Assembly (NCBI GenBank): GCA_964425075.1
Contig: CAYRKM010000001.1
Span: 18,756 to 82,755, forward strand
Direction of reading: 5' to 3'
Length of the DNA: 64,000 bases
Source: an uncultured Gammaproteobacteria bacterium
GTDB lineage: Bacteria > Patescibacteriota > Microgenomatia > Levybacterales > GWA1-39-11
How positions within the stretch are numbered: the first letter of the stretch is position 1; each line of letters begins with the position of its first letter. Below the pieces are notes generated by a model, which was not told where the DNA came from, did not search any database, and was given only the letters and a program-made list of their open reading frames with translations. The position numbers and the translations under genes are program-made. Shown here piece after piece: positions 15,856-64,000 of the stretch.

Positions 15856-16539
15856 ATGGAAGGAATATTTGGAGTTTACAAGACCCGCGGCATGACGTCA
15901 CACGATGTTGTTGCAATCATAAGACGCAAAACTAATGTTAAGCGTGTCGGTCATGGCGGTACTTTGGACCCCTTAGCAGAAGGTGTTCTTGTAATTGCAG
16001 TTGGACGCGAGAACACAAAACTACTCGATACATACGTTAAAGGAGAAAAGGAATATATTGCAGAAATCTTTCTTGGAGCCAATTCCACCACAGATGACGC
16101 GGAAGGAGAGATAAAAAAGGTAAACTCTAAAGTCATGCCTAAAATGGACAAAGTTAAAGAAGTGAGTAAATTATTTACTGGAGAGGTGATGCAAACCCCT
16201 CCCATCTACTCATCCGTGAAAATAGCGGGAAAACCTGCGCACCGTCGCGTAAGACGTGGAGAAAAAGTAAAACTCGAACCACGAAAAGTCAAAATTCACT
16301 CAATTGAAATTCTTGACTATCAATTTCCTGTTTTAAAACTGAAAGTTACAACAGGACCAGGAGTTTATATCCGCTCCCTTGCACGAGACATCGGAGAGCA
16401 GCTTGGAACGGGCGGTTATCTAACGAGCTTAATTAGAACAAGGGTTAATAATTTCACAATTGATGAGGCTATAAAACTTAATAATTCCGACTTTAGGCAA
16501 GAAAAAAAGCCCTCAGGCCAAGACACAAAAAGCGCGTGA
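15856..16539 (+). CDS. truB: tRNA pseudouridine(55) synthase TruB
   Basis: start at MEGIFGVYK Met; GMTSHDVV...GHGGTLDPLAEGVLVIAVG catalytic Asp motif. Confidence 0.85.
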   Translation: MEGIFGVYKTRGMTSHDVVAIIRRKTNVKRVGHGGTLDPLAEGVLVIAVGRENTKLLDTYVKGEKEYIAEIFLGANSTTDDAEGEIKKVNSKVMPKMDKVKEVSKLFTGEVMQTPPIYSSVKIAGKPAHRRVRRGEKVKLEPRKVKIHSIEILDYQFPVLKLKVTTGPGVYIRSLARDIGEQLGTGGYLTSLIRTRVNNFTIDEAIKLNNSDFRQEKKPSGQDTKSA

Positions 16540-16679
16540 TGCAATGCATATCTGCATCAGTACTGGTTGGTCCAACGACCCTCGGGCTTTGCCCGTTGAA
16601 TTCTTGTTTGTATCTTGCAAGAGGTAGACGCACTCAGCGTCGTTCGGGCTCCGCGCCCGCTTGCCACCACTAAGTCGCT

Positions 16680-17006
16680 TCAAACCGAGTGACTCTCGAT
16701 GTACGTAATCACGACCTCAGATGGGTCGTCTAGAACTGTCGCAAACATCCCATAGATCTCCTTCTTCAGACCAAGAAGTGCCTCTCTGTCACCCATGTAT
16801 TCCGCGGAAACATAGATCCTTAAGGGCACTCTGGCAAGGTCATCTTGTCCTGTTGGCCAGAACAAGATTTCCACCATCCTTGGTGACACGAAGAAAGCCC
16901 TGCGTGCACCGAGCTGAGTTGCCACCGTATGCGTCAACCACTCCCGCACCTGAACTCTGTCCAGGTTGATGCGGTCTGGGTTGTATCTAACCACTACTGT
17001 TATCAT
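16680..17006 (-). CDS. small hypothetical protein, paralog A (GC-rich island B)
   Basis: 108 aa (MITVVVRYNPD...); AAAGGAGTG RBS; preceded and followed by ~90-bp repeat; ~60% GC. Confidence 0.5.
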   Translation of the reverse strand: MITVVVRYNPDRINLDRVQVREWLTHTVATQLGARRAFFVSPRMVEILFWPTGQDDLARVPLRIYVSAEYMGDREALLGLKKEIYGMFATVLDDPSEVVITYIESHSV

Positions 17007-17009
17007 CAC

Positions 17010-17105
17010 GCACTCCTTTCAGGGCTTTACGAACACATGTTGCAAGTGGTAGGGTTTTTGACCCACTCAGGCCTTAACGGCCCGCTTGCCACCACTAGAT
17101 CCCAC
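17010..17105. repeat. ~90-bp intergenic repeat, copy 1 (second copy at 17439..17540; truncated third copy at 16648..16679)
   Basis: near-identical strings GCAAGTGGTAGGGTTTTTGACCCACTCAGGCCTTAACGGC(CC/TG)GCTTGCCACCACTAGA at both sites; each carries the RBS of the downstream small gene. Confidence 0.65.
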
Positions 17106-17438
17106 TTAGAACATCTCCGACTTGATCAGCACAATCCTGACGTGTTGTTCGGAGAAGCCCGGAAGGACTGCAACCACATCCTCCTTGAGTCGCCTCGCCA
17201 GATCCTCAGAACGACGGACGCCGTGGTCAACCAGAAGGCTGACGACGAAATGGATGTTTGGGTGTAACCTGTCGGATTCCCAATCGATCCTGCTGAAGAA
17301 AACTGCCACGTCCTCCGGACGAACCGGTTTTCCTCCTGCGAAAAAGTGGCCTGCCACGACGCGGCGAATTGCCTCAGCCCTCTCGCCGAAAGGAGCAAAC
17401 GACTGTGGCTTGTAATGAACCTCTACCTGAATTTTCAT
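17106..17438 (-). CDS. small hypothetical protein, paralog B (GC-rich island B)
   Basis: 110 aa from MKIQVEVHYKPQSF (internal Met of ORF 17106..17573) with GAAGGGAGTAAG RBS; same size and beta-alpha pattern as paralog A. Confidence 0.5.
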   Translation of the reverse strand: MKIQVEVHYKPQSFAPFGERAEAIRRVVAGHFFAGGKPVRPEDVAVFFSRIDWESDRLHPNIHFVVSLLVDHGVRRSEDLARRLKEDVVAVLPGFSEQHVRIVLIKSEMF

Positions 17439-17540
17439 GGATCTTACTCCCTTCAGAGTTTCACGGACACGTGTTTTGCAAGTGGTAGGGTTTTTGACCC
17501 ACTCAGGCCTTAACGGCTGGCTTGCCACCACTAGACCTGG
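17439..17540. repeat. ~90-bp intergenic repeat, copy 2
   Basis: see copy 1. Confidence 0.65.
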
Positions 17541-17706
17541 GTTTACCTTTTGCGATATCGGCAGATGTCGCAAAAGATCTTGTGGTCAAAGATGGGATGA
17601 GGAGCAGTGCCCTCACCTCCACAATTTCCACATCCAGGATCTGGTTTTGAGGTCGGGGCTCCGCGCCCCGCCTCAAGCAGTTTCACTTCGTCATCCATAA
17701 CTTCTC

Positions 17707-17964
17707 CTATTCTCTTGTGGTTAGCTCTGACCATTTCATGACCAGAACAGTCCAACCGACCATTAAGGCCAGTAAGACCCTCTCCATCATTGGATCCGTG
17801 TAGTTGATTATCGTAGCCCAGGGAAGGACTAAGAGAATCAACATGTAGAAGGCGTAGGCCATCCAGCCCCGCCAACCATACTTCCACTCTGAGGCAAGTA
17901 TGATCGTTGAAACCAGAAGGTATGCTGCCACACCTCCGGACCAATACCAGAAGGACTCCGGCAT
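17707..17964 (-). CDS. small two/three-TM membrane protein (island B)
   Basis: 85 aa from MPESFWYWSGG... with AAAGGTGA RBS; followed by GGGGCGCGGAGCCCC hairpin. Confidence 0.45.
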   Translation of the reverse strand: MPESFWYWSGGVAAYLLVSTIILASEWKYGWRGWMAYAFYMLILLVLPWATIINYTDPMMERVLLALMVGWTVLVMKWSELTTRE

Positions 17965-20596: not shown

Positions 20597-20656
20597 TTTG
20601 ATGTGTGAAGGGGCGCCCCGCGGTTAGACCGCGGGAGCACCCCATGAACCAAGGAC

Positions 20657-21376
20657 CTAGGCCAACATTGCCTCCGGATGTCTGGCAAGCCAGACCATGA
20701 GGGTGTCGTTGGCTGTGGCCGAACGGTAGTTGATGCCGTTCAGCTCACCCGCGGCGATGCGTGAAAGAATCTCCCTCACGGGCAACCATGCAGTTCCTGT
20801 GATCCGCTCCTCCGTGTCGGTAGGAAGTCTGACTTGCGTCAGGTCCACTTCAACTTCAAAGAGCGAACTCCATGAGGCACAGAAGGTGGGATTGGGGTTG
20901 TGATGCCCCATCTCGACTATCTCGCCGATGAGTGCCTCAGGTGGAACTCCACCCTCTTCAAGCAGCTCACGAAGAGCAGCTGCGATCACGGTCTCCGCAC
21001 CGCTCTCGTTGAATGCCATAACCGCGGGCTGCCCGAATACGATCGGCGGGTCAGCAGGCTCTCCGGAAGGAAGGTCTGAAAATGGCCTCTCCTGGAAAAC
21101 CACTAACACTCGCCAGCCATCGGCAGCTTTGCCGGCGGCAACACCATTGATGTTTGCCGCCTCTCTGTACGCTCCCCGCTCGAAAGCGGGGGAACCGTCC
21201 GGGTTGGTCTGGACGCGAACGCGCATGGAACCAAACCGGGGGGATGTAATTCCCCAACCATCTGGATCTGGAACCCAAGCATTCTCACCACGAGTGGCAA
21301 GAAAGTCTGGGCAATCCACTGGGTCAATCCAACCGCGCATCGATGATCTATCCTCTCCTTGCGGCCTTACGGCCAC
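20657..21376 (-). CDS. Nudix-like hydrolase (GC-rich island C)
   Basis: 239 aa (GTG start, or internal MRGWIDP Met with GGAGAGG RBS); degenerate Nudix box ETVIAAALRELLEEGGV (Ex7REUxEExGU). Confidence 0.5.
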   Translation of the reverse strand: MAVRPQGEDRSSMRGWIDPVDCPDFLATRGENAWVPDPDGWGITSPRFGSMRVRVQTNPDGSPAFERGAYREAANINGVAAGKAADGWRVLVVFQERPFSDLPSGEPADPPIVFGQPAVMAFNESGAETVIAAALRELLEEGGVPPEALIGEIVEMGHHNPNPTFCASWSSLFEVEVDLTQVRLPTDTEERITGTAWLPVREILSRIAAGELNGINYRSATANDTLMVWLARHPEAMLA

Positions 21377-49485: not shown

Positions 49486-49756
49486 TTTTTTTACACTTCT
49501 ATTACTTCTTTTCCTCTAAGATTCAGCTTCTCTTGCTTTAATTTAACCTAAATTTATAACTTCGTCAGAAATTTGTCATGAAAAATTGACTGTAAGTGGT
49601 AAAATTGTTGAATTGAAAATCCAATTTGGGTTATATCAATAAGCTCTTTAATAATTGGGTGGATTTTTAGTGCTTGAAAGGGTTCTCCCGATCTTAAGAT
49701 ATATTGTCTTCGGATCGGGGGAACTCCCCAAGGGATCACAGAAAGGATCAACAACC

Positions 49757-50896
49757 ATGCCGAGTTTGCGCGGCCAAGAGGTTACCATTTCCGTCATTAA
49801 GGCGGATGTTGGCAGCATCGGAGGCCACACGCGCCCAAGCCCAACCATGATCAGACACGCGGAAAGAGCCATCGAAGGCGCAATCCGCGAAGGACTCATC
49901 GTGGACGGCTTCGCCACCTTCATCGGTGACGACACTGCCCTGAACATGCTTCACACTCGTGGAGAAAACTCGCAGGACGTACATCTCTTCGCATCAACGA
50001 CGTTCTTCGAGATGACCGGGATCGCGGAGAGAGAAGGTCTCTATGGCGCAGGCCAAGACCTCCTTGAGAGTGCTCCCAGCGGCAACGTCCGCGGAGCGGG
50101 ACCTGGTGCTGCCGAGATCGAATTCGTTCTCTTGCCTGACCGACGTTCGGCGGAGAGCATGATGATCTTCTCTGCAGACAAGTGCGGACCGGGAATGTTC
50201 AATCCCTACATCCGCGACGTCCTCACCAGCCCTGACGTCAACGGAGGGCTTCTTATTGCCTCTCCGCAGCGAGCAGGCTTCACGGTGAAGATCATCGACA
50301 TGAGTCCAGGGGCAAAGCAGGCCATCACGCTCACTCTGCCTGAAGACCGAGATGCGATGGCTGCTCTTCTGAGGACGCCAGACGTCTTCGCTGTCAAAAG
50401 CGTCTATTCGGGTCAGCATCCCGAAGAAAAGCTGATGGACTGCACGACCGACAGGCTTCACAGCTTCGGACCGACCGTGTACAAGGGCAAAGATGACCCT
50501 GTGCTCATTGTCCGAAATCAGGGGCTGTCCCTGGCACCGGAGGAGATCCTTCGACCGTGGACAAATCCGCGCAGAACCACAGGCGGCGCCCGTGGGAGCT
50601 CGGTGCAATACCCCTTCCCGAGCGCCATCAACACCCCGGTGACAGGAGCTTACTGCCAGACGCTAGTCGCCTGCATCGGCTTCTCGGTCAGCGAGGAGGG
50701 CAAGTTCTCGGAACGGGTCGACTTCTTTGCTTGGCCCGTCTGGGACTGGACACGTCAGCAGGTCTCCAAGCTTGCTAACCAGCTCTACCGCGAGGGGTTC
50801 AACGAAATGGCAATCGCCTCGAGTGGCGAACTCGCCTACACAGGCCTTCGTGACCTGGACGAGGCACTTTTGGCCCGTTTCGAGCCCATCGACTAG
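49757..50896 (+). CDS. fbp: bifunctional fructose-1,6-bisphosphate aldolase/phosphatase (class V FBPase, archaeal type), island F
   Basis: 380 aa from MPSLRGQEVTISVIKADVGSIGGHTRPS; ISVIKADxGS, GDDTALNMLHTRGE and GLYGAGQDLLESAPSGNVRGAGPGAAEIEF blocks match the FBP aldolase/phosphatase family; ~60% GC. Confidence 0.8.
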   Translation: MPSLRGQEVTISVIKADVGSIGGHTRPSPTMIRHAERAIEGAIREGLIVDGFATFIGDDTALNMLHTRGENSQDVHLFASTTFFEMTGIAEREGLYGAGQDLLESAPSGNVRGAGPGAAEIEFVLLPDRRSAESMMIFSADKCGPGMFNPYIRDVLTSPDVNGGLLIASPQRAGFTVKIIDMSPGAKQAITLTLPEDRDAMAALLRTPDVFAVKSVYSGQHPEEKLMDCTTDRLHSFGPTVYKGKDDPVLIVRNQGLSLAPEEILRPWTNPRRTTGGARGSSVQYPFPSAINTPVTGAYCQTLVACIGFSVSEEGKFSERVDFFAWPVWDWTRQQVSKLANQLYREGFNEMAIASSGELAYTGLRDLDEALLARFEPID

Positions 50897-52413: not shown

Positions 52414-52866
52414 CTATTTTTTGGTGGGACTAGGACTTAATGAAGGTGAAGGTAAGGCGCTTGGTGCATCTCCTTTCACAACTGGACCGATATCTACAAC
52501 CTTCTTTATCGAAGGCCTATAAAGGATAGCTTTCTTGCTTTCGGGGTAAATAAGTACCTTGTCCCCATTTTCAGCGTTTTTGAAAAGCGGTTGGCCCTCA
52601 AGTTGTTTTTTGTCAACTACAGTTGCAATTGTTACCGGTCCACCAGGCAAAATTACACTTTTTGCAACCTCATTTACCAAAGAATCCACCTCATTTGCCC
52701 CGAGCACTTTTTCTGAAGAATAATAATCTTTAAAAATAAAATAACCCACCCCAAGACCCAGCATTATTAATAGGAAGAAAACAACAAGAATAATAGGAAC
52801 AGCTTTTGAACGAGGTTCTCTTTTCGTATCGGACATATCGTTATGTATTGTGCCAAATTCTCGCAT
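52414..52866 (-). CDS. membrane-anchored protein, paralog of the N-terminal domain of 55694..56584
   Basis: 150 aa; TM then ...ATVVDKKQLEGQPLFKNAENGDKVLIYPESKKAILYRPSIKKVVDIG, closely matching ...ATISDIAKLENQPFFREAKNGDKLIIYAGIRKAILYRPEIKKIIEIS; P/S-rich tail. Confidence 0.5.
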   Translation of the reverse strand: MREFGTIHNDMSDTKREPRSKAVPIILVVFFLLIMLGLGVGYFIFKDYYSSEKVLGANEVDSLVNEVAKSVILPGGPVTIATVVDKKQLEGQPLFKNAENGDKVLIYPESKKAILYRPSIKKVVDIGPVVKGDAPSALPSPSLSPSPTKK

Positions 52867-52918: not shown

Positions 52919-55669
52919 ATGAAGGTATTTAAACGCCTAATAGCTTGTCTTGTGCTTATCCTGCTCCTTTTCGGACTATTTCCGCCTCCGCCAATCTATT
53001 CTGGTGATCTTTCAAATACGACATTAAGACTAACTAGGCAAAAAATTTCCACCTCATCAGGTGGAATGGTTTGTGCGCAAACTCCCTCATCTGACAATGG
53101 AACTGAAGCAAGTGTGCAGGTTATCTTTCCTACAGGATTTACAGTTAATTCTACAGCCTCAAATTGGACAGTTACAACTTCAAATCTTGCAAATGGGGCA
53201 ACAGCCTGGCCGGGAATTGATACGGCTACGGCTGTTTCTGGTCAAATTGTTACATTTCCAAGTACAAATTTATCGGCAAATACACTATATTGTTTTAATT
53301 TTTCTTCCTCAAGCACTCTTACCAACCCATCTTCAGCCGGAAATTATAGTGGAACCATCCGCACTCGTACTTCAGGTGCTGCAACTATAGACAGTAGGGA
53401 TTATGGAGTGGCAATTGTAAGTAACGAGCAAATTACTGTAACAGCAACAGTTGCAGCCTCACCAACTGACTATCAGGTTTCACTTGCCAAAACTTCACCC
53501 GCTAGTAGCACCTTTGCACAAGACACAACTATAGCCTATCAATTAACCTACGGCACAACACTTAATTATGCCACATCAATTACTGTTGAAGCACAGTGGA
53601 GTCTTGGTACAATTGAGGGATCAGGTGCGCCGACAGTTTCGGCTTTGAATTATGTAGTAGGAAGTGCATCCAATGGATATAATAGCACTGCTCCCGTCAT
53701 TGACACAACAAACAGAAAAATTACCTGGACAATTTCTTCATTCCCAGGCAATACATCTAACCAAACTGTAACTTTCAGTCTTAAAACCACTGATAATTAT
53801 ACAGGCTCTCTTGACGTTGACTTCACTACAAGTGGAAGGGTGCTTGGACCTGGAACTCAAACATCAGACTCAGATGTAAATGGCACCTATATATATAACT
53901 ACGGTATTACTCCAACTCCACAATCTGCTGCAGCTCCGGGGGGCGATGGGAGGTCTGATGGAAGGTCTGACGGCAGAGGAGGTTCCACCACCACAAATTC
54001 GCCACTTGCAATTGGTGATGTTGGGGTAAGAACTATTTCTGCAACTAATGCAACAATATTTGTAGAAACAAACAAAGCTTCATCCGTTACACTTTCGTAT
54101 GGAACTTCCCGAAATTCACTTATTAACACCGTAACTTCAGGAAACACACTACAACACCTGCTAAAACTCCAAAATCTTACTCCAAATACCCAATATTATT
54201 TTAGAATAACTGCACGTAGCGAATCAGAAACAGCCACCTCAGACCTCTTTACTTTCACAACTGCACTCGATATTCCCCCGCCGGAAATTGATAATAATTC
54301 ATTGAATATAACAGTTGGGGATGTCATACTCTCAGATCCATCTAAGGCATTGAATAACATCGCTAGAATAGTCTTACCTACAAATACGGCTTATTCCTTT
54401 AAGTTTATGATTTCTAATTTTAAAAACATAAAAGATGTAAGGGTTATAGCTAGAAATAAAAACGTACTCGGTGCAAACACACTAGGCAATAGAGGACTAA
54501 GCACAAATGAAGTTAGCCTTTCCGAAGTAAATCCAGGCCAATATATTGGAAGGCTTCAAAGTGACCAAAACCCCGAAACCTACCAAATATTTGTTAGTGT
54601 CTCAGACTTTAACGGAAATATCGCAGAACAACTCCTTGCAGAACTTCATGTAAAGCGTCCTTTCACGATTGTGTCAGCGAGAGATAATTCGCCTGTTGAA
54701 AATGCCAGGGTTACTATTTACTATCTCCACCCCAGATTCAAAACCTATGAACTCATTTCCAAGAATCTGCTAGAAATCCAGAATCCTGAATATAGCAACA
54801 TTGAAGGAATAGTAGATATTGCATTGCCTCAAGCGAAATATCGAGCTGAAATTGAAGCTTTAGGCTTTGCTACCAAAACCGTGGATTTTGAAATAGGAAT
54901 TGGGCCGGGTCAAGGTTACCCTCAAGTAAAATTGGAACCTACAGGGTTTGGTTTTATTGAAACAATAACATTTATTGTAGTAGTAGCTGGTGATGTTTTC
55001 TCTACATTTAATTCACTTATACAAGAACTAGGTTTCTCAAATAGAATGTTTGGATTTTTAGCTCTTATTACAGCAATTGAATTTACAATACTCCTCTTTT
55101 TTAGTTTTGCTGTTTATTTTGCCGTTACCCCCTGGAGACTTCCTTTTTATATTTTTTACCACCTCACAGCTTTTCTTAGAAAGGACAAGAACGGACAGAT
55201 TATAAAGGGGACTGTTATCAACCGCGAGGATGGATACGGAGTTAAGGGAATTTTGGTTTATATTCACAAGGGTTTAGGTAAGGTAATTGGCCATACTATA
55301 ACCAACTCGTTTGGTGAGTTTTATATACGGGTACCATCCTCAGGGTCTTACAGTATAACTACAATGCATAAATCATTTAAATCCACTCCTTCTTTCCGAG
55401 TCGAAAATGCATCAGGAGTTCAGAAGATTTACATTGAGGAGAAACGATTAAATAAACTCTCACTATTCCTGCACAAAACAGGATGGTATGGGGGGTATTT
55501 ATTATGCGACTTTATAGAGCTTTCTTTATTAATAACTCTTGTAATTGAAATACTTTTTGTTGTAAACCTCGGGTTTCTAAAAACCTTACCATTTCTTATC
55601 CTCGCAATTTCAAACTTTATACTTCTTCTTTACTTTAGAAAACACAAAGACGAGGCTAAAATTAGATAA
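52919..55669 (+). CDS. large S/T-rich surface protein with carboxypeptidase-regulatory-like domains and C-terminal multi-TM region
   Basis: 916 aa; signal peptide; GRSDGRSDGRGG tandem repeat; two CarboxypepD_reg-like segments (ARVTIYY...AEIEALGFATKTVDFEI; KGTVINREDGYGVKGILVYIHK...); four or more C-terminal TM helices. Confidence 0.6.
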   Translation: MKVFKRLIACLVLILLLFGLFPPPPIYSGDLSNTTLRLTRQKISTSSGGMVCAQTPSSDNGTEASVQVIFPTGFTVNSTASNWTVTTSNLANGATAWPGIDTATAVSGQIVTFPSTNLSANTLYCFNFSSSSTLTNPSSAGNYSGTIRTRTSGAATIDSRDYGVAIVSNEQITVTATVAASPTDYQVSLAKTSPASSTFAQDTTIAYQLTYGTTLNYATSITVEAQWSLGTIEGSGAPTVSALNYVVGSASNGYNSTAPVIDTTNRKITWTISSFPGNTSNQTVTFSLKTTDNYTGSLDVDFTTSGRVLGPGTQTSDSDVNGTYIYNYGITPTPQSAAAPGGDGRSDGRSDGRGGSTTTNSPLAIGDVGVRTISATNATIFVETNKASSVTLSYGTSRNSLINTVTSGNTLQHLLKLQNLTPNTQYYFRITARSESETATSDLFTFTTALDIPPPEIDNNSLNITVGDVILSDPSKALNNIARIVLPTNTAYSFKFMISNFKNIKDVRVIARNKNVLGANTLGNRGLSTNEVSLSEVNPGQYIGRLQSDQNPETYQIFVSVSDFNGNIAEQLLAELHVKRPFTIVSARDNSPVENARVTIYYLHPRFKTYELISKNLLEIQNPEYSNIEGIVDIALPQAKYRAEIEALGFATKTVDFEIGIGPGQGYPQVKLEPTGFGFIETITFIVVVAGDVFSTFNSLIQELGFSNRMFGFLALITAIEFTILLFFSFAVYFAVTPWRLPFYIFYHLTAFLRKDKNGQIIKGTVINREDGYGVKGILVYIHKGLGKVIGHTITNSFGEFYIRVPSSGSYSITTMHKSFKSTPSFRVENASGVQKIYIEEKRLNKLSLFLHKTGWYGGYLLCDFIELSLLITLVIEILFVVNLGFLKTLPFLILAISNFILLLYFRKHKDEAKIR

Positions 55670-55693: not shown

Positions 55694-56584
55694 CTAATAT
55701 TGTTCTGCAAAATCATCCCCCAAAATAAGGACAGCATCAGCGTTTGATGGTTTTGTTTCTCCTTCAGGAAGGCTTACAACATCAGGAGTTACTTTCGTAA
55801 TGCCTTTTATGGCCTCTTTCAACTTACTTTCAGAGATGGGGTTTGATGTGTCTACAGATGAGATTGATGTAGTTTGATAGTCCTCTTTTGCATTCCCCGT
55901 TGATACAATTTCTATGCTGTCCCCCTCTAAAATATCAGAGGCCTTTTTTGCAAGACCACCCTCTTTTGTACCATTAAGAATTACAATTTTTATAACTTTT
56001 TCTTCTGCTTCTACTATCGGCGTTGGAGTTAGAGTGGGCTCAGAAAGATTTGGGGCGTTATTTGTTTGATCAGATTCTCCTTCACCAATTGTCGAAATTT
56101 CAATGATCTTCTTTATCTCTGGCCTATAAAGTATTGCTTTTCTTATACCTGCATAAATTATCAACTTATCTCCATTCTTTGCTTCTCTAAAAAAAGGCTG
56201 ATTTTCAAGTTTTGCTATATCGGATATTGTTGCAACCGTTGGCTTCTCATCACTCGAAAGCAATACTTTCTCACCAACTTCTTGCAGTAAAGCATCAATT
56301 TCCGCTAGATTTCCCTCTTTTTCACCTGAAAATATATTTAAAAATTTACCGCGGATAGGAGAAGCTAAAATACCCAACAAGATTGTTACAATAAGCACAA
56401 ATCCAAAAAGGAACTTTCTATCTGATAGCACTTTTTTTGGAATAATTCTTAAGAAATTGAGATTAAGTCTTAGTTTTGGTTTTGTAACAGAATCCCCCTT
56501 GGTCTGCTCAAAAAATGATTTTTTACTATCTTGGGCCACTTTCTTCACACTATTTATGATAGGGTAATCAAAAGGCAACGTCAA
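55694..56584 (-). CDS. membrane-anchored protein with C-terminal LytR_C-type domain
   Basis: 296 aa; N-terminal TM; C-terminal IVILNGTKEGGLAKKASDILEG...VSTGNAKEDYQTTSI...DAVLILGDDF matches the LytR C-terminal domain pattern. Confidence 0.55.
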   Translation of the reverse strand: MTLPFDYPIINSVKKVAQDSKKSFFEQTKGDSVTKPKLRLNLNFLRIIPKKVLSDRKFLFGFVLIVTILLGILASPIRGKFLNIFSGEKEGNLAEIDALLQEVGEKVLLSSDEKPTVATISDIAKLENQPFFREAKNGDKLIIYAGIRKAILYRPEIKKIIEISTIGEGESDQTNNAPNLSEPTLTPTPIVEAEEKVIKIVILNGTKEGGLAKKASDILEGDSIEIVSTGNAKEDYQTTSISSVDTSNPISESKLKEAIKGITKVTPDVVSLPEGETKPSNADAVLILGDDFAEQY

Positions 56585-56632: not shown

Positions 56633-57634
56633 TTAGTTTAACTGCTTTGATGACTTATTCTCCAATGCGTCATAAATCCTTGAGGATATTTGAGCAATTA
56701 CTCTCTCGAGGCTTACAAAACTATTTCCCCTCGTCATGATACATACCAGATATGGGTTTCCCTTCCTATAGACAATCCCACAATCATGCAATTGCTTTAC
56801 GCCATTCTGAAGTTCTCTCTCTCCAAATTTATGACTTACAACAATTGAGTGAGGAATGCCAGCAACAATTCCATTTTTAAATTCAGTTTTTGATAGAATT
56901 TCCAGAGCTTTTTCTGAAAGATCTTTCTTTAGATATGAAGCGTTATAAAGAATTCTAAAGAGGCCGGAATAACCCTTGACGCTCATAAAATCCTCAGGGG
57001 TATTAGCTGTAGCCGTTTCTACTCCCAAATCAAGAGTAATCCTATCAATTAAGGCAGGTTCTATATTTTCCTCCAGCAAAGACAATGCAGCATTATCAGA
57101 ATAAACCATCATGCTCTCAATCAACTCATCTATCGTATACTCTTTTCCTATCTTAATTGATTGAGTGGGCTTTACTGCCTGTTCAAGAAGTATTTCTTTA
57201 GAATCATATTTGACTTTTTTACTTAAAAGATCAGGCGCTGACTCCGATTTTTTATAATAGGCCATCATAACCGGAAGTTTTAAAAGACTTGCTGGGGAAA
57301 AAGGCGCATGTTCATTTACTCCTATCCAGGGACCATTATTTAAATCTCTGAAATAGACAGAAGCATCATTTATATTTCCTGCTTTTTTCTGACTCTCAAC
57401 ATAATCAGCAATGTCTTTTTGCAAAGAGTTAAGACCCGTTAGTCGGATTGAATCCATTGAAGGTTCGCATTCAAGCAATGGACTTATAAATTTGTATCCT
57501 GATTCCCTTACCTCGGAGAATTTATCCTCATCGGAAGAATTCTCTGAAGTATTTTTTGAAGACAGGACGAAACTACCAAAAAATAATCCCAAAGCAAAGG
57601 CAATAAAAACAAAAACTATCGCTTTCCTACTCAT
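56633..57634 (-). CDS. serine hydrolase of the class A beta-lactamase / penicillin-binding fold (tentative)
   Basis: 333 aa; signal/TM; SxxK (SPASLLKLP), SDN (YSDNAA) and KxG-like (HKFGE) motifs in canonical order. Confidence 0.5.
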   Translation of the reverse strand: MSRKAIVFVFIAFALGLFFGSFVLSSKNTSENSSDEDKFSEVRESGYKFISPLLECEPSMDSIRLTGLNSLQKDIADYVESQKKAGNINDASVYFRDLNNGPWIGVNEHAPFSPASLLKLPVMMAYYKKSESAPDLLSKKVKYDSKEILLEQAVKPTQSIKIGKEYTIDELIESMMVYSDNAALSLLEENIEPALIDRITLDLGVETATANTPEDFMSVKGYSGLFRILYNASYLKKDLSEKALEILSKTEFKNGIVAGIPHSIVVSHKFGERELQNGVKQLHDCGIVYRKGNPYLVCIMTRGNSFVSLERVIAQISSRIYDALENKSSKQLN

Positions 57635-58196: not shown

Positions 58197-61100
58197 TTAA
58201 TTAACTATCAAATAATTAAATTCAACGTTTTTCTCAGCATTAACCTCAATACCAACAGTGAATGATCCATCAATTTCTTTTTCAGGATCCTCCTGTTTTT
58301 GCTCCAGTAAATATAATTGATGAGAGGATTGAGTTTTGGGGGTTATAAAAATAAGAGATGTATCTTTAACTAGCTTATTTAGAACTTTTATATGATCTGT
58401 ATTCTTCTTAAGAGTTATAAGTCCTGCAGCAGCTGTTGACTCAACTTCGGTATCACTAAGTACTTTTACTTTACCTTGCGCAAGTAGTAATTGACTACTT
58501 TGCACTGATTGGGCGCTAAATATACCTTTGACCGCAACGTTCTTCTCAAAACTTACATTCTCCCTAAAAACTGCCTCACCGTTGGCCATGAAGGTTATTG
58601 CATTACCCAAAAATGAAATATTCCCTTGTTTCAATGGTTGGATTTCCAAGTCTTGAAGCGCGTTAATTGCACCATTTCCAATTGTCAAATTGTTACCAAC
58701 AGTAATGCTATCCATCACTGAAACTTCACTTATAGTGGTCGTTCCGAATACAACTAAATTGTCGGCAATAGAGACAGCCCCTGAACCACTTGCGAACTGA
58801 CTCATTGATAAGAGGTTAAGAGCCTCCATTTTCTCAAGACGTGTAGAAAGAGCCTTCATGCTACTTGTTAGCTCCTCTAAATTGGCTGCTGCTTTACTCA
58901 TCTGCGATGAGAATTGACTTACTGCAGAACCTGAAGCTGATTGTGTCAAAAGGTCAATTTTGTTGGTTAATATTTCAAGCCCTTCAATTGACTCCGCCTT
59001 TATCTTTTTCGCAACTAATAGATCCGTTATTATCTTTGGACTGATTACCTCCTGGGTAGCAGCTATGCTATCAGTAAAAATACCCTGATTATTATTTTTC
59101 TGGGTTTTAAGGAATGCAAGTATTTCCTGCTGACGCCTATCATCTGATCCTAATTCAAAATTAAGCCCTGCAATATTTGGAAGAGAAGCTTCATCAATAG
59201 CAAATCCCTGCTCTGCCATGGCAATATCTACTGACTGGCCGTTGTAATCTACAAGATTTGCAAAAAGCATAACCTCTCCACACTTTGTATCAGGAAGTGA
59301 ACCAAGATTTATTTTTGGACATTCTGTTGCATACTCTTCATTGAAATCCTCCAAAGCCTTACCCAGAACTCTTCCACCAACTGTAGCCTTCATTGCATAC
59401 CCTGGGATGGAAGACGAGGTTAGATAGTCCCCTGCATGAACAGGTCCATTTTCATTGGTTACCTTAACTGGTACACGTCCCACCAATGCAATTGGATGAG
59501 AATCCTCAGTATATGCACCCGCTACAAAACCTGGCTTTGTTGATACAACTCCTAAAGCATCCTTTTGATATTGACCAGTTGTCTTCTTTACATTATGGTC
59601 ACCTTGTGAAGAATCTATCTGAACAACTTCACCTGGAAGCAACGTCTCAACTGAGGAATAATTTTCAGCCAAGTCAGCTCCACTTGTAAAGAATCCACCT
59701 TGCTGACCTGCGTATATATTTCCTGACTCATTAACTCTAAAAACTGTTTGGCCACCGCTTTGAAGCTTTAAAAGATCGGCATCATTGGTAATTTTATATT
59801 CAAATAACGTTGGCTGAGCTATAGTTCTCCAAGCAAGAGCACCATTCGAGCGCCAGACATCCTGATTAACATCACTGTACGTAGGAAAGTCCCTTGAGAA
59901 ATTTATTTGAACCTGGAGCCACTTATCAGTTGCAGCTGCCCCTAAATTCCCATCTGAAGGATAAACAGATTTATAGTCTGCTGTAAGAAGTGAGTCCTTA
60001 TCTGCAGCAGTCCTGACCTCAATATTAAGATGCTTATCAGCATTTTGTTTCCACGTCATAACAGAGCTTGTGCTTAACTGTGGAACATACATTTGACCTG
60101 AAAGATATTGCCCATCTGCAAAATAACCTGTATCAATAAGACTTACGTTATTGTTACCAGCCATTCCTCCATTTATCATTACCCACTTACCGTCTGGTCG
60201 CTGGAAAGCTACTGCTCCCGCTCCCTGAGGACTTACAAGCTGGGGTCCTGCACCAACTGCCAAGCCTCCTGAATATCCCAAAACCTGTGATCCTCCATAA
60301 GGAGACCAGATGCTTGAGGCATTAGCTGTATTTGCAGCCATATCAATAGTCTGGGTTTGACCACGTGTTATTAACCAAGTTCCGTCTGCTCTTGGTATTG
60401 CAACGCTTCCTCTACCGGCAGCATTTGTCATTGCGGTACCCGCTGCGAATGAATTGGTATATGGATTATAAACAGTCAGCGTAGCTGCTGGAGCTCCATT
60501 TGTACCAGCTGCACCTGCTACCACCATCCAAGCACCATCTTGACGTTGAAATACGTAAGAACCACATCCAAAGGCAACACCTGTGTTTGCAGCTGCCTGG
60601 AATAATTTTTTATTAGCATCATAAACCATCGATGTCTGAACACCTGTTGTAAACTGTCCGACTCCAATAAATACCCTATAAAGACCCTGATTTCCCCCAG
60701 CCATAGGTACAGCCCAAGCACCACAAGTAATATTACTTGAAGATGTTGGTCCTGCTGCAAGCGCAGTTGTGCCTTGCTGTAAATCTTTATACGGGTTAAA
60801 GAGTGTCGTAGTGGCAGCAGCCCCACCATGAACCAATGTGTATGTGCCATCCGTATTTTTGATAGGAAATCCTCCACGTCCTGAATTTGCTGAAAGCGCC
60901 GGTCCTGCTGCAAACCTAGAACCTGAAGCTGCTCTTGGATCATAAATATTTGTAGTTGTCCTTCCTGTTCCTCCTGCATCCTCACCAAATACTATTAAAA
61001 ATCTCCCATCAGGCAATTTAAGCGCATATGACCCCCACCCAGGGTATGTTGTAGGTACATCTCCTCCACCTGACTGAAGACTAAAGGTTGAAGACGCAGG

Positions 61101-63947
61101 ATCATAAATTGAAAAATTAACTGAAGCCGAAGCTGTTGCTATAACTCCAACTTGCCCATCAGGAAGCTGCATTACAACTGTTCCTTCCCCAGTATTTACA
61201 AGGGTTGTTGGATGTGGACCAATAAGTCCCTGATAAAATCCAGTTGTACTTACCATTGCATCTCCAGGCACCTGACCTACTGGTAAAGTAAGCCTATCGG
61301 GTAAATTCTGAACTCTAGTCAAAGCTGAGGCAGATGCCTCATAAGGTGCTCCGCTAAGTGCAGAATTTGCAAAATTATCAGCATTTCTCGTAAGGACACT
61401 AGAATTATCCAAAGTGTAATCGAACAATGTTGGGCTTGCAAAATCTTTAATCAGTAAAGGCCCATTTGCAAAATAGGTAAACCTTTCATCAATTGGATTT
61501 TGAGGGATAGGCCGCCTGAATCTTACTGTAACTCGTGCCCATGTATCAGAACTTGAGGCATTTACAAGATCTCCACTCCTTTGAATTGGCTTATCAATTG
61601 CACTTGAAAGACCACCCTGTGAGGTAGCAGTTTTAACAAAAAACTCAACATTTGACTGAGGTGTATCGGTAGTGGCACTAGAACTTCCCACAAATATATT
61701 TTCTGCTCCAATCGTCCACAATAGACTTGATGAAGGATTAAGTGAGGCTGTGTTAAAGTCTTCAGAAACATAAGACCCGCTCATGTTAAGGCCTGCGTCT
61801 ATCTTATTGGTAGTTGTTGCATTTCCTACGAAAACTTGAAAAGTACCATCATAATTCATTACTGTATGTGCGCCAATTCCAATAGCGGTAAGGTTTGTCC
61901 CATGCGTAGTATATGTATTGAGAGTTGGATTATATATATATGAAGCAGTCGAATTTCCTCCTACCATAATGAGTATCTTTCTATCCTGATATCTTATTGC
62001 ATGTGCTCCCTGACCCAATGCTGTTCCGGGACCAACCGCCTGACAAGGACCCATTGTATTGGCTGCAGCATCATAGATAACAGAAACATTAGCTTTTGAA
62101 AGGATCACGTACCTCCAGTTAGGAAGCTGTATCGCAACAGAACCTGCTCCATTTATTTCACAGTTAGTAGGAAGGGCCGGACCCGATGACACCGAACCTA
62201 TTGGAGCACCATTTGTAATGGTCCCATTATTAGGGTTATATAGCTGGGTCGTTGCAGTCGATCCTCCATTTATAATAAGTGCACTTCCATCAGGGCGTGG
62301 CAAAATTTGAGCACCAAGTCCGGTGGTTGTAAGAGTTGGTCCTGCTGAAAAAGTCTCAGTAGTGGGTGAAGGATTATATACAGATGAAGCTGTAGTACCA
62401 CCAATTGCTATAAAATATCTCCCGTTTTGTCTTCTGTATGCAACTGTTGAGTCCACAGTTGGTGCAGTACCTATGGCAACTGATGCTCCTACTGCAACCA
62501 CACCATTCGGATCTACTAATGATGTTGTAGTTACTGCATTTCCGTGGACCACTCTATATCTCCCATCGCTTCTCGGTAGTGCAATCGCACCCTCTTCAGC
62601 TGCTGCATTAAGTACTTGAGGAGATGCATAAATTTGCCCCGACTTTGAATCATAGATATACATGGTAGTAGTATTTCCACCACGAATCAAAAGATATGTT
62701 CCGTTTTGCCTTAAAATTGACATTGCGCCCTGACCAAGAGCAAGCGGAACTGCAGGCTGAGAGCCTGTTGTTATTGTCCCCGTTCCTGAATTTGGAACAG
62801 TCCCAACTGATAATTCAAGCGCATTCTTTGTATTATTAAGATTTGTTAGGGTAGCATTCGTGCTATTTGCGGTCCTTTGAAAATCTGTTGAAGTTAAATT
62901 GTTACCGGAAGTTGACTTATGGATATCAATTGATCCCTGTGTATCTACTGTTATTCCAGCCGAAGCATTTATTCCACCTGCTTTTGTAACTGTAAATTTA
63001 GTAAGTCCGCTTGCTGAAGCAGTAAGAAAGTCCCCTGTTCCATTTTGATCAATCAATAGGCCTGCAAATGTGGAATTTGCAGATATTGATGCAACTGCCG
63101 TAGTTCCTGCAGAAGTTATACCAGCCAACTTAAATACTGCAGAACTACTACTTGTGCTTCCCCACAAAAAGTCAACAGTGTTATTAATTGGAGAAAGTGT
63201 CTTATTGGATGTTGAAAGAACCCAATTAGAAGAACCGCCCGGCCCACCACTATTTGCATCATCACTACATGTAAGCACCCCACCTGAAGTTGTTGTAAGC
63301 TTTCCTCCATTTCCATTTCCCGAACAGTCAAATCCAGGTAAAGTAATCCCATTTGAAGCTCTTCCAAGGGTTAGTGTGGTAGCTGTGGTCGTGCCAATCC
63401 CTAACGTACCATTCGTTAATGTATCAATTGTCTGGCTTGCTGCAAGCTTTACGGAACCATTCAAATCAAGAGTGAATTTAGTGATACCTGCAGAGGAAGC
63501 CGTAAAGATGTCTTGGTTCTCTATTTGGTCAAATATTGCCACTGCTTTTCCCGTTGCTCCAAGGGAGAGTGCCCTTGTTACATGCAATTGAGAGATAGGA
63601 GTCGTAGTACCAATACCGAATTCTCCACTTGCAAGTATCGTTGCTCTTGCTGCATTACTCGTTCTTAGATTTAGTGGACTGCTACTATTTGCTCCAATAT
63701 TTACTGTGTTGTCACCGTCATATGAGAATAGATACCCTTGAGTAGTGGCCGAATCAAATCGTAATGTTGTATAGTTACCGGTTGTTTTATACAAATGAAG
63801 AATCTCTGTGGGAGTAGCTGTTCCCATACCAATATTGCCACTTGTTCCAACATAGAGTGCCGGAGTTGAAATATTTCCGGGCTTGAATTGTATGTCTCCG
63901 GTCGTATTCCCTCCAAGGGTTAATGTGTTATTCCTGACAGACTGCAA
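58197..63947 (-). CDS. giant surface protein (over 1916 aa; N-terminus lies beyond window end), G/T/S/N/A-rich beta-repeat fibre with tail-fibre-like C-terminal module
   Basis: frame stays open from 63947 to position 64000 (listed start is a TTG); hundreds of short G/T/S/A-rich beta-strand repeats; C-terminal ...GADLAENYSSVETLLPGEVVQID...ALGVVSTKPGFVAGA resembles the intramolecular-chaperone domain of phage tail spikes/fibres. Confidence 0.7.
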   Translation of the reverse strand: MQSVRNNTLTLGGNTTGDIQFKPGNISTPALYVGTSGNIGMGTATPTEILHLYKTTGNYTTLRFDSATTQGYLFSYDGDNTVNIGANSSSPLNLRTSNAARATILASGEFGIGTTTPISQLHVTRALSLGATGKAVAIFDQIENQDIFTASSAGITKFTLDLNGSVKLAASQTIDTLTNGTLGIGTTTATTLTLGRASNGITLPGFDCSGNGNGGKLTTTSGGVLTCSDDANSGGPGGSSNWVLSTSNKTLSPINNTVDFLWGSTSSSSAVFKLAGITSAGTTAVASISANSTFAGLLIDQNGTGDFLTASASGLTKFTVTKAGGINASAGITVDTQGSIDIHKSTSGNNLTSTDFQRTANSTNATLTNLNNTKNALELSVGTVPNSGTGTITTGSQPAVPLALGQGAMSILRQNGTYLLIRGGNTTTMYIYDSKSGQIYASPQVLNAAAEEGAIALPRSDGRYRVVHGNAVTTTSLVDPNGVVAVGASVAIGTAPTVDSTVAYRRQNGRYFIAIGGTTASSVYNPSPTTETFSAGPTLTTTGLGAQILPRPDGSALIINGGSTATTQLYNPNNGTITNGAPIGSVSSGPALPTNCEINGAGSVAIQLPNWRYVILSKANVSVIYDAAANTMGPCQAVGPGTALGQGAHAIRYQDRKILIMVGGNSTASYIYNPTLNTYTTHGTNLTAIGIGAHTVMNYDGTFQVFVGNATTTNKIDAGLNMSGSYVSEDFNTASLNPSSSLLWTIGAENIFVGSSSATTDTPQSNVEFFVKTATSQGGLSSAIDKPIQRSGDLVNASSSDTWARVTVRFRRPIPQNPIDERFTYFANGPLLIKDFASPTLFDYTLDNSSVLTRNADNFANSALSGAPYEASASALTRVQNLPDRLTLPVGQVPGDAMVSTTGFYQGLIGPHPTTLVNTGEGTVVMQLPDGQVGVIATASASVNFSIYDPASSTFSLQSGGGDVPTTYPGWGSYALKLPDGRFLIVFGEDAGGTGRTTTNIYDPRAASGSRFAAGPALSANSGRGGFPIKNTDGTYTLVHGGAAATTTLFNPYKDLQQGTTALAAGPTSSSNITCGAWAVPMAGGNQGLYRVFIGVGQFTTGVQTSMVYDANKKLFQAAANTGVAFGCGSYVFQRQDGAWMVVAGAAGTNGAPAATLTVYNPYTNSFAAGTAMTNAAGRGSVAIPRADGTWLITRGQTQTIDMAANTANASSIWSPYGGSQVLGYSGGLAVGAGPQLVSPQGAGAVAFQRPDGKWVMINGGMAGNNNVSLIDTGYFADGQYLSGQMYVPQLSTSSVMTWKQNADKHLNIEVRTAADKDSLLTADYKSVYPSDGNLGAAATDKWLQVQINFSRDFPTYSDVNQDVWRSNGALAWRTIAQPTLFEYKITNDADLLKLQSGGQTVFRVNESGNIYAGQQGGFFTSGADLAENYSSVETLLPGEVVQIDSSQGDHNVKKTTGQYQKDALGVVSTKPGFVAGAYTEDSHPIALVGRVPVKVTNENGPVHAGDYLTSSSIPGYAMKATVGGRVLGKALEDFNEEYATECPKINLGSLPDTKCGEVMLFANLVDYNGQSVDIAMAEQGFAIDEASLPNIAGLNFELGSDDRRQQEILAFLKTQKNNNQGIFTDSIAATQEVISPKIITDLLVAKKIKAESIEGLEILTNKIDLLTQSASGSAVSQFSSQMSKAAANLEELTSSMKALSTRLEKMEALNLLSMSQFASGSGAVSIADNLVVFGTTTISEVSVMDSITVGNNLTIGNGAINALQDLEIQPLKQGNISFLGNAITFMANGEAVFRENVSFEKNVAVKGIFSAQSVQSSQLLLAQGKVKVLSDTEVESTAAAGLITLKKNTDHIKVLNKLVKDTSLIFITPKTQSSHQLYLLEQKQEDPEKEIDGSFTVGIEVNAEKNVEFNYLIVN

Positions 63948-64000
63948 ACTTCCATCCCCTGAAAGATATATTCCTTTAGTTGCATTTCCTCCTTGTTGTG

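Follow-up and report, generated by a model that had tools for sequence, protein, structure and literature searches.

A giant fibre gene at the edge of the window

The DNA analysed here (the window) is a 64,000-nucleotide stretch of contig CAYRKM010000001.1 (positions 18,756 to 82,755, forward strand; assembly GCA_964425075.1) that was deposited as an uncultured Gammaproteobacteria bacterium and is placed by GTDB in the Patescibacteriota (Microgenomatia; Levybacterales; GWA1-39-11). Its last part is occupied by an incomplete open reading frame (ORF) for a giant fibre-like protein on the minus strand. The frame is open from 63998 to a stop codon at 58197-58199 and meets no stop upstream up to the window edge, in agreement with a preliminary description of this sequence that had it running off the edge. 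The length given there, over 1916 aa, counts from the first TTG codon; the full open frame is 1,933 codons. We think it probable that the protein is a secreted fibre of a bacterium of the candidate phyla radiation (CPR), of which the window encodes the final 1,933 residues; judged by its closest colinear relative, it would be ~2,600-2,700 aa long in full. The gene is real, since a search with the last 534 aa found 189 relatives, the best at E=3e-111. The composition (G 11.1, T 10.7, A 10.2, S 9.4 and N 6.9%) bears out the earlier statement that the protein is rich in these five residues, and two strings, GADLAENYSSVETLLPGEVVQID and GVVSTKPGFVAGA, both occur in the translation. The hundreds of short repeats that were said to make up the protein were not found: there is instead a duplication of two modules, each with seven Kelch blades and a sandwich, plus a 39-aa stalk motif that occurs twice, and Tandem Repeats Finder detected no DNA-level repeat array. 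The parts of the gene are as follows (residue numbers are those of the 1,933-aa ORF).

58197..64000, minus strand: partial ORF of the giant fibre protein (1,933 codons and the stop at 58197-58199; N-terminus beyond the window)
62739..63998, minus strand: stalk region, aa 1-420 (T/G/S-rich beta segments and a Cys225/Cys244 loop)
61386..62735, minus strand: module 1, aa 422-871, 7-bladed Kelch-type beta-propeller plus beta-sandwich (homology to module 2)
59766..61187, minus strand: module 2, aa 938-1411, 7-bladed Kelch-type beta-propeller plus beta-sandwich (AlphaFold (AF2) model, Foldseek)
59676..59765, minus strand: neck, aa 1412-1441, ending ...FRVNESGNIYAGQQGGFFTSGA (alignment with relatives; short strands in the AF2 model)
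59199..59675, minus strand: Peptidase_G2-like intramolecular chaperone (IMC) domain, aa 1442-1600 (profile, PF11962 in relatives, AF2, Foldseek)
59664..59675, minus strand: D1442-L-A-E1445, predicted catalytic Asp/Glu pair (conservation; alignment to the start of 3gqh)
58800..59147, minus strand: helical, probably coiled-coil, segment, aa 1618-1733 (AF2 helices at model positions 219-235, 275-290 and 298-334)
58566..58775, minus strand: short beta-strand repeats, aa 1742-1811 (AF2 strands at model positions 343-412, moderate confidence)
58200..58475, minus strand: terminal beta-sandwich, aa 1842-1933, K1-lyase_C / H-type-lectin-like (predicted local distance difference test score (pLDDT) ~80-89)

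An internal domain related to phage autochaperones

The preliminary description had the protein end with the motif GADLAENY. The glycine of that motif is residue 1440 (window position 59681) and 494 residues follow it, so that the module to which it belongs is internal. The stretch conserved across relatives spans aa ~1436-1560, and when 47 diverse relatives are aligned (A1), D-L-A-E hardly varies in its Asp, Ala and Glu; counted in a set of 124 relatives, D1442 is conserved in 117 of 118 and E1445 in 116 of 118 (~99%). When the A1 profile was searched against PDB sequences it matched the autochaperone of phage phi29 gp12 (3gqh, E=7.3e-5; 6qz9, 2e-4; 3suc, 4.9e-3) and also the chaperone domain D4 of tailspike Dpo31 (0.013). 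The 3gqh entry is the cleaved-off chain; it starts DFAEYFES, and its residue 1 aligns with D1442 in this match, while 3suc, titled 'pre-mature' gp12, has DFAQYFES at the equivalent site. PF11962 (Peptidase_G2, IMC autoproteolytic cleavage domain) is matched by 12 of the 47 relatives, and P0085, P0088, P0129 and P0079 reach its cut-off.

The D4 domains of phi29 gp12 (PF11962; PDB 3gqh, 3suc) and of Dpo31 (PDB 28nb) are trimeric autochaperones that are cut off and have a beta-stranded body unlike that of the S74 chaperones (PMC13317679, PMC4690869). The domain studied here resembles them in its profile similarity over the first ~80 residues, in the D-x-x-E pair exactly at the domain start, in its beta-rich fold and in its place directly after a fibre or spike body. 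As in Peptidase_G2, a catalytic Asp at the cleavage site would be followed by a Glu three residues on (D1442/E1445). The very C-terminal location of that family is not shared, since phi29 D4 has 163 aa from the Asp to the end whereas 492 are found here, where the domain is internal. Further differences from phi29 D4 are that the residue before the Asp is Ser there and Ala here, that the second half of the domain is here more like phage cement proteins, that the host protein here would be secreted and cellular, and that cleavage here is a prediction. We therefore regard the domain, from its sequence, as a distant member of Peptidase_G2 or as a sister family, a branch of the G2 chaperones that the Pfam models essentially miss. 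Because the G2-type Asp/Glu pair is intact, cleavage at the predicted scissile bond A1441|D1442 is expected and not lost.

A close phage counterpart is gp359 of Pseudomonas phage PA5oct (YP_010678855.1), a virion protein confirmed by mass spectrometry whose gene adjoins the long-tail-fibre genes. It shares ~40% identity over the domain (ADLAERY, GVISTS.G, ALAGRVPVKV) and has a repetitive fibre before it. In contrast to the giant protein it is 478 aa long, ends with the domain (...SSKYADLAERY...) and lacks a signal peptide, Kelch modules and a C-terminal extension.

Structure prediction agrees with a phage-type fold. An AF2 model of aa 1400-1933 contains a beta-rich domain at aa 1440-1600 with pLDDT above 90, and Foldseek searches of the PDB with the domain model returned phage cement proteins, 3suc (probability 0.99), and pyocin and tailspike tips. 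A fold search of BFVD gave dozens of phage proteins that align over ~150 residues with a root-mean-square deviation of 2-3.7 Å and 25-34% identity, two of which bear the name 'Preneck appendage protein'. The likeness to cement or decoration proteins (PF09956, PF22758, PF23982; Pam3 gp6, 8hdt; Borrelia phage BB1, 8pkh; fold matches at E ~2e-4 to 1e-3) is seen in sequence as well: in several relatives the second half of the domain matches such families (PF23982 in up to 7 of the 47), the matches falling on the GRVPVKV...GD.LT...G.A.KA half. Unlike this domain, which sits within a fibre, the cement proteins are small stand-alone capsid proteins without a D-x-x-E start. Cys1560 and Cys1573 are conserved (Cys141 and Cys154, invariant in A5, an alignment of closer relatives). 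A phmmer search of the PDB with the C-terminal 534 aa gave only a chance match to MyD88.

The family is very large: 25,791 cluster representatives match at E<=1e-10, and the number rises to 32,385 at E<=1e-3. The top matches are giant proteins, the longest of 5,766 aa, in which the domain often occurs two to four times; the 64-kb window holds no second copy. P0045, P0047 and P0049 were noted alongside such multi-copy giant relatives, of which there are many. One chain, P0110, has both a Peptidase_S74 domain (aa 240-301) and a G2-like domain (aa 474-640), and P0079 has an intein splicing domain and two G2-like copies. These multi-domain chains suggest proteins built for cutting at several places.

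The preliminary description was right in its concept of a tail-fibre chaperone module, an IMC of the phage type, and mistaken as to the family, which is G2-like. It had proposed a C-terminal, endosialidase-type Peptidase_S74 domain in a non-cleaving or diverged version, with its catalytic Ser and Lys replaced by A and E. The S74 IMCs (K1F endosialidase, T5 pb1, GA-1 gp12, MyRF) are alike in that a C-terminal module folds the fibre trimer and then cuts itself (PMC4690869), and in eukaryotic MyRF such a module lies inside a cellular protein (PMC8326128). An Asp after the cleavage position is common to both motifs, P0110 combines the two domains, and P0128, which has an S74 domain, is related to the giant protein in the N-terminal stalk region. 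The S74 IMCs differ from the domain studied here in fold and in their Ser/Lys catalysis, and no sequence similarity to it was detected. The proposed search with the Peptidase_S74 profile (PF13884) gave no match at E<=10, with the whole protein or with pieces of it, and no S74 structure is among the PDB matches of the A1 profile at E<=1; the profile of the family finds phi29 gp12 D4 instead. A-D-L-A-E-N-Y has no Ser or Lys, and the mapping fails on spacing, with the Glu four residues after the Ala as against an S74 Lys five after the Ser. Moreover the G2 type is matched with both key residues, and the domain is not C-terminal. The A and E are thus not a dead Ser/Lys dyad, D1442 and E1445 being the pair expected for G2. 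The S74 identity was rejected on this absence of profile and structure matches, the spacing and the G2 match, and we give it next to no chance of being correct.

The fibre body: stalk and Kelch-type modules

The stalk region is characterised by the motifs IGTTTP...LHV and GKA.AIFDQ...DIFTASS.G.TKFT; the 39-aa motif occurs at aa 155-193 and 315-353. Relatives of this region are few, two of them carrying S74 or G2 domains, and a Pfam scan of aa 1-420 gave no match. The two modules that follow are an internal duplication (aa 422-871 vs 987-1411, E=1e-25). Each copy has seven blade starts of the type '..RPDG....V.GG....T..YNP' (in module 1 at aa 430, 476, 523, 568, 625, ~670 and 715), with blades of ~45-55 aa, in line with a Kelch-type propeller, which has six or seven four-stranded blades. 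An AF2 model of aa 921-1440 (pLDDT 76.8, predicted template modelling score 0.70) matched Kelch and galactose-oxidase-like propeller-plus-sandwich proteins in Foldseek (E ~1e-11 to 1e-9), the propeller-plus-sandwich match at E ~1e-11 spanning the entire model; at E<=1e-3 the module 2 model matched more than 500 PDB entries, with propellers of the Kelch and galactose-oxidase kinds at the top. In its two domains and its 7-bladed Kelch fold the module is built like galactose-oxidase-like proteins with a C-terminal beta-sandwich (e.g. 5c92, 9g43). Identity to them is 11-15% only, and in contrast to them the module is here duplicated inside a fibre. At the sequence level Pfam Kelch_1/Kelch_2 matches appear only in relative P0135 and not in the protein itself. 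In P0136, also related to the Kelch/sandwich module, the chain opens with a prepilin-type leader (KGFSLTELLV...), so that a type IV pilin-like N-terminus can also display this module.

The C-terminal extension

The distance from D1442 to the end, 492 aa here, is 404-713 aa in ~50 close relatives and 126-139 aa in distant relatives and phage proteins. The extension common to the CPR relatives consists of the Cys pair, helices and an end domain, and relative P0052 has weak matches to coiled-coil families in the helical segment. The end domain is H-type-lectin-like (H_lectin) in most relatives; in the subgroup that aligns to the last residue of our protein (P0052, P0071, P0045, P0053, P0055) it is K1-lyase_C-like, with PF24146 matches in P0071 (3.8e-8), P0052 (4.5e-5) and P0045 (4.4e-4), of which only that of P0071 is above the cut-off. 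A Pfam scan of our end domain gave no direct match to H_lectin (PF09458) or PF24146, a 6-sequence end-domain profile gave only spurious HisF matches in the PDB, and Foldseek gave weak matches to K1 lyase and H-type lectins. By way of its relatives, then, the end domain is indirectly indicated to be lectin-like (K1-lyase_C / H-type).

Relatives, export and probable trimer formation

All named relatives belong to CPR lineages (Levyibacteriota, Moraniibacteriota, Daviesbacteria, Roizmanbacteria, Pacebacteria, Microgenomates), which confirms the origin suggested in the preliminary description. A search for the missing upstream sequence was made in several ways: an exact 49-mer from the window edge had no match in genome or metagenome contig collections, exact-protein look-up of two neighbour genes had none in the searchable collections, and a search for relatives in genome contigs gave no sequence upstream for the N-terminus. 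A pattern search of metagenome contigs yielded 80 related loci, among which complete ORFs are 1,750-3,900 aa long. In 19 of 24 relative ORFs that were extracted, a hydrophobic leader is followed by 'A.A|..K.INFQGK' (an Ala-x-Ala site) and then by a conserved N-terminal domain, 'INFQGK(V/L)VN..DGTN'; Pfam scans of full-length L002, L009 and L003 named no N-terminal domain. L002 (2,645 aa) is the closest colinear relative, its residues 797-2645 matching aa 54-1933 of our protein, a colinearity that implies that ~750 N-terminal residues are probably missing here.

Two relatives (L052 and L059) have a membrane helix at the N-terminus in place of the leader. In two others, L015 (3,423 aa) and P0053 (888 aa), two MerR-type helix-turn-helix domains precede a membrane helix and the fibre. 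After its helix L015 (L015:1097-11368, +) continues with collagen repeats, a giant fibre colinear with our protein, the DLAE domain and a C-terminal extension; L015 and P0053 resemble membrane-tethered regulators with a phage-like fibre as their outside part. Collagen triple-helix repeats are found in L015 (E=7e-14) and L052 (2e-19), an independent hint that the fibres may be trimeric. Taken together, these relatives indicate that the protein is probably cellular, exported and trimeric; the conserved Cys pair also speaks for a secreted protein.

Gene neighbourhood

Two genes lie downstream of the giant gene and on the same strand.

56633..57634, minus strand: membrane-anchored serine hydrolase of the beta-lactamase family (PF13354, E=3.7e-38; SLLK, SDN and KFG motifs)
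55694..56584, minus strand: membrane-anchored LytR_C-domain protein (PF13399, E=2e-8)

Synteny was scored over 2.5 kb downstream in 21 distant loci and in those 51 close loci whose sequence extends at least 1.1 kb beyond the gene on that side. A beta-lactamase-family gene is present in 22 of the 51 close loci, a LytR_C gene in 34 and at least one of the two in 44, usually beginning 0-170 bp after the stop of the giant gene; neither was seen in the 21 distant loci. Homologues of a 916-aa surface protein (52919-55669, CarboxypepD_reg) occur close to the giant gene in 8 loci, and a 150-aa ORF (52414-52866) is paralogous to the LytR_C protein in its N-terminal part.

This neighbourhood bears on the question whether the giant gene might encode the tail fibre or tailspike of a phage or prophage and not be a cellular gene. 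The matches of its IMC domain and fold come overwhelmingly from phages, and a PHROGs search gave weak matches only (E ~0.02), tail fibre among them. The window is nevertheless ordinary chromosome with housekeeping genes throughout (TruB, ribosomal protein L1, Obg, PurA, fructose-1,6-bisphosphate aldolase/phosphatase and four tRNAs), and no phage genes were found within it near the giant gene. Full-length relatives carry Sec signal peptides or membrane anchors, which are absent from virion proteins, and lie on contigs of up to 845 kb, where the same envelope genes adjoin them. A prophage origin was rejected on the housekeeping context, the exported relatives and the shared envelope-gene neighbours, and we consider it very improbable. 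What the preliminary description had called phage-derived architecture is borne out insofar as the protein is laid out like a phage fibre.

A model for maturation of the fibre

The reading that we somewhat favour is that of a self-cleaving, phage-type fibre, and it is based on the domain identities, the residue conservation, the signal peptides and anchors of relatives and the synteny; from these we infer trimer formation, cleavage and an adhesive role. The complete chain would consist of an N-terminus now missing (in the closest relatives, a Sec signal peptide followed by the 'INFQGK' domain), the stalk, the two Kelch-propeller/beta-sandwich modules and the neck, followed by the Peptidase_G2-like IMC domain, the helical segment, the beta repeats and the lectin-like end domain. 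After export of the chains, three C-terminal regions would come together by way of their IMC domains and coiled coils and so template trimerisation of the upstream fibre. The Asp1442/Glu1445 pair would then cut between A1441 and D1442, leaving ...FFTSGA at the end of the upstream product and a downstream piece that starts DLAENYSSVETLLPGEVVQIDSSQGDHNVK; a testable prediction is thus a single scissile bond, A1441|D1442. The products would be a mature fibre with the second Kelch/sandwich module at its distal end and a separate piece of 492 aa, made up of the IMC knob, the coiled coil and the lectin-like domain, that is released or stays loosely bound. Phage fibres likewise end in a receptor-binding domain just before the chaperone, the position of module 2 here. 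The mature fibre would have its place at the cell surface or envelope, where its most plausible role would be attachment to a glycan or partner cell, and would work alongside the conserved downstream beta-lactamase-family and LytR_C proteins.

Several observations weigh against this model. The N-terminus lies outside the window and the export signal is seen in relatives only. Scanned directly against Pfam, whole or as three pieces, the protein matched no family and gave just a chance Glyco_hydro_30C fragment, and the PF11962 matches in relatives are marginal (25-29 bits vs a cut-off of 25, covering only model positions ~31-101 of 228). The best PDB fold matches are cement proteins, and that to 3suc is weak (E=0.057), all with monomer models only. 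In this locus 560 bp separate the giant gene from the beta-lactamase-family gene, with a terminator-like hairpin and a promoter-like site between them, which makes co-transcription uncertain. Unlike in the phage proteins, the domain is internal, with a conserved extension of ~330 aa after it; it would seem wasteful to throw away 492 aa that include a lectin-like tip, a point in favour of their retention or of a separate role. Finally, the release of phi29 D4 is reported, in the part of PMC13317679 that cites Xiang 2009, to need ATP; since ATP is absent outside the cell, an ATP-dependent release cannot apply equally to a secreted protein.

Some of these points suit a different arrangement, in which the G2-like domain is retained, either uncut or still bound after the cut, and serves as a trimerisation knot within the fibre; the coiled coil and lectin-like end then form a distal tip that binds a glycan of the host cell or of the bacterium's own wall. 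The domain is indeed internal, and the extension (404-713 aa from the Asp to the end) is kept across CPR relatives and varies as a receptor-binding tip would (H_lectin, K1-lyase_C-like, an added SH3_3 in P0048). N-terminal membrane anchors in relatives put the C-terminus distally, single chains of many family members contain the domain two to four times, and the P22 tailspike is a known uncleaved autochaperone (PMC4690869). However, the ~99% conservation of the Asp and Glu would not be needed if cleavage were irrelevant, every characterised case (phi29 gp12, Dpo31) is cut off (PMC13317679), and the short relatives and phage proteins stop right after the domain. We judge such a retained knot unlikely, though well worth bearing in mind beside the self-cleaving fibre.

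A more speculative scheme, to which we can give little credence, is that one chain yields two fibres. Extracellular IMC cleavage would divide each trimer in two, one part an anchored fibre with a Kelch tip and the other a lectin-tipped mini-fibre that is free or loosely bound. In proteins of the L015 and P0053 types contact of the fibre with a partner cell could be relayed directly to transcription through the two cytoplasmic MerR-type DNA-binding domains. The window protein would then be a secreted, non-signalling form that works with its conserved beta-lactamase-family and LytR_C neighbours. If this were true, L015 and P0053 would be a bacterial counterpart, in reversed topology, of the MyRF principle.

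The giant protein and others like it form an uncharacterised but common family of cellular fibres, and a full-text literature search gave no description of the domain in CPR bacteria. New here is a G2-like IMC moved into giant, probably secreted cellular fibres, with a conserved extension and a conserved envelope-gene cassette. CPR bacteria live attached to other cells and their mode of attachment is largely unknown; the domain provides a handle for finding the surface fibres of such uncultured episymbionts.

Other features of the window

The ribosomal protein L1 ORF (28769-29701, plus strand, 310 aa) matches Pfam in two stretches, the best covering aa 192-304 only, and AT skew is strong (+0.26) in the 2 kb around it; it possibly has an A-rich N-terminal extension or insertion. 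Two GC-rich islands (16400-17900 and 20600-21300, with GC ~0.52 and 0.60 vs ~0.37 for the genome) gave no Rfam match at E<=0.1, and their ORFs have no Pfam match except for a weak NUDIX (20657-21376). The fructose-1,6-bisphosphate aldolase/phosphatase (49655-50896, plus strand; FBPase_3, E=2e-97) is of the archaeal type, lies in a stretch with a GC of 0.48 and adjoins genes for tRNA-Thr and tRNA-Tyr.

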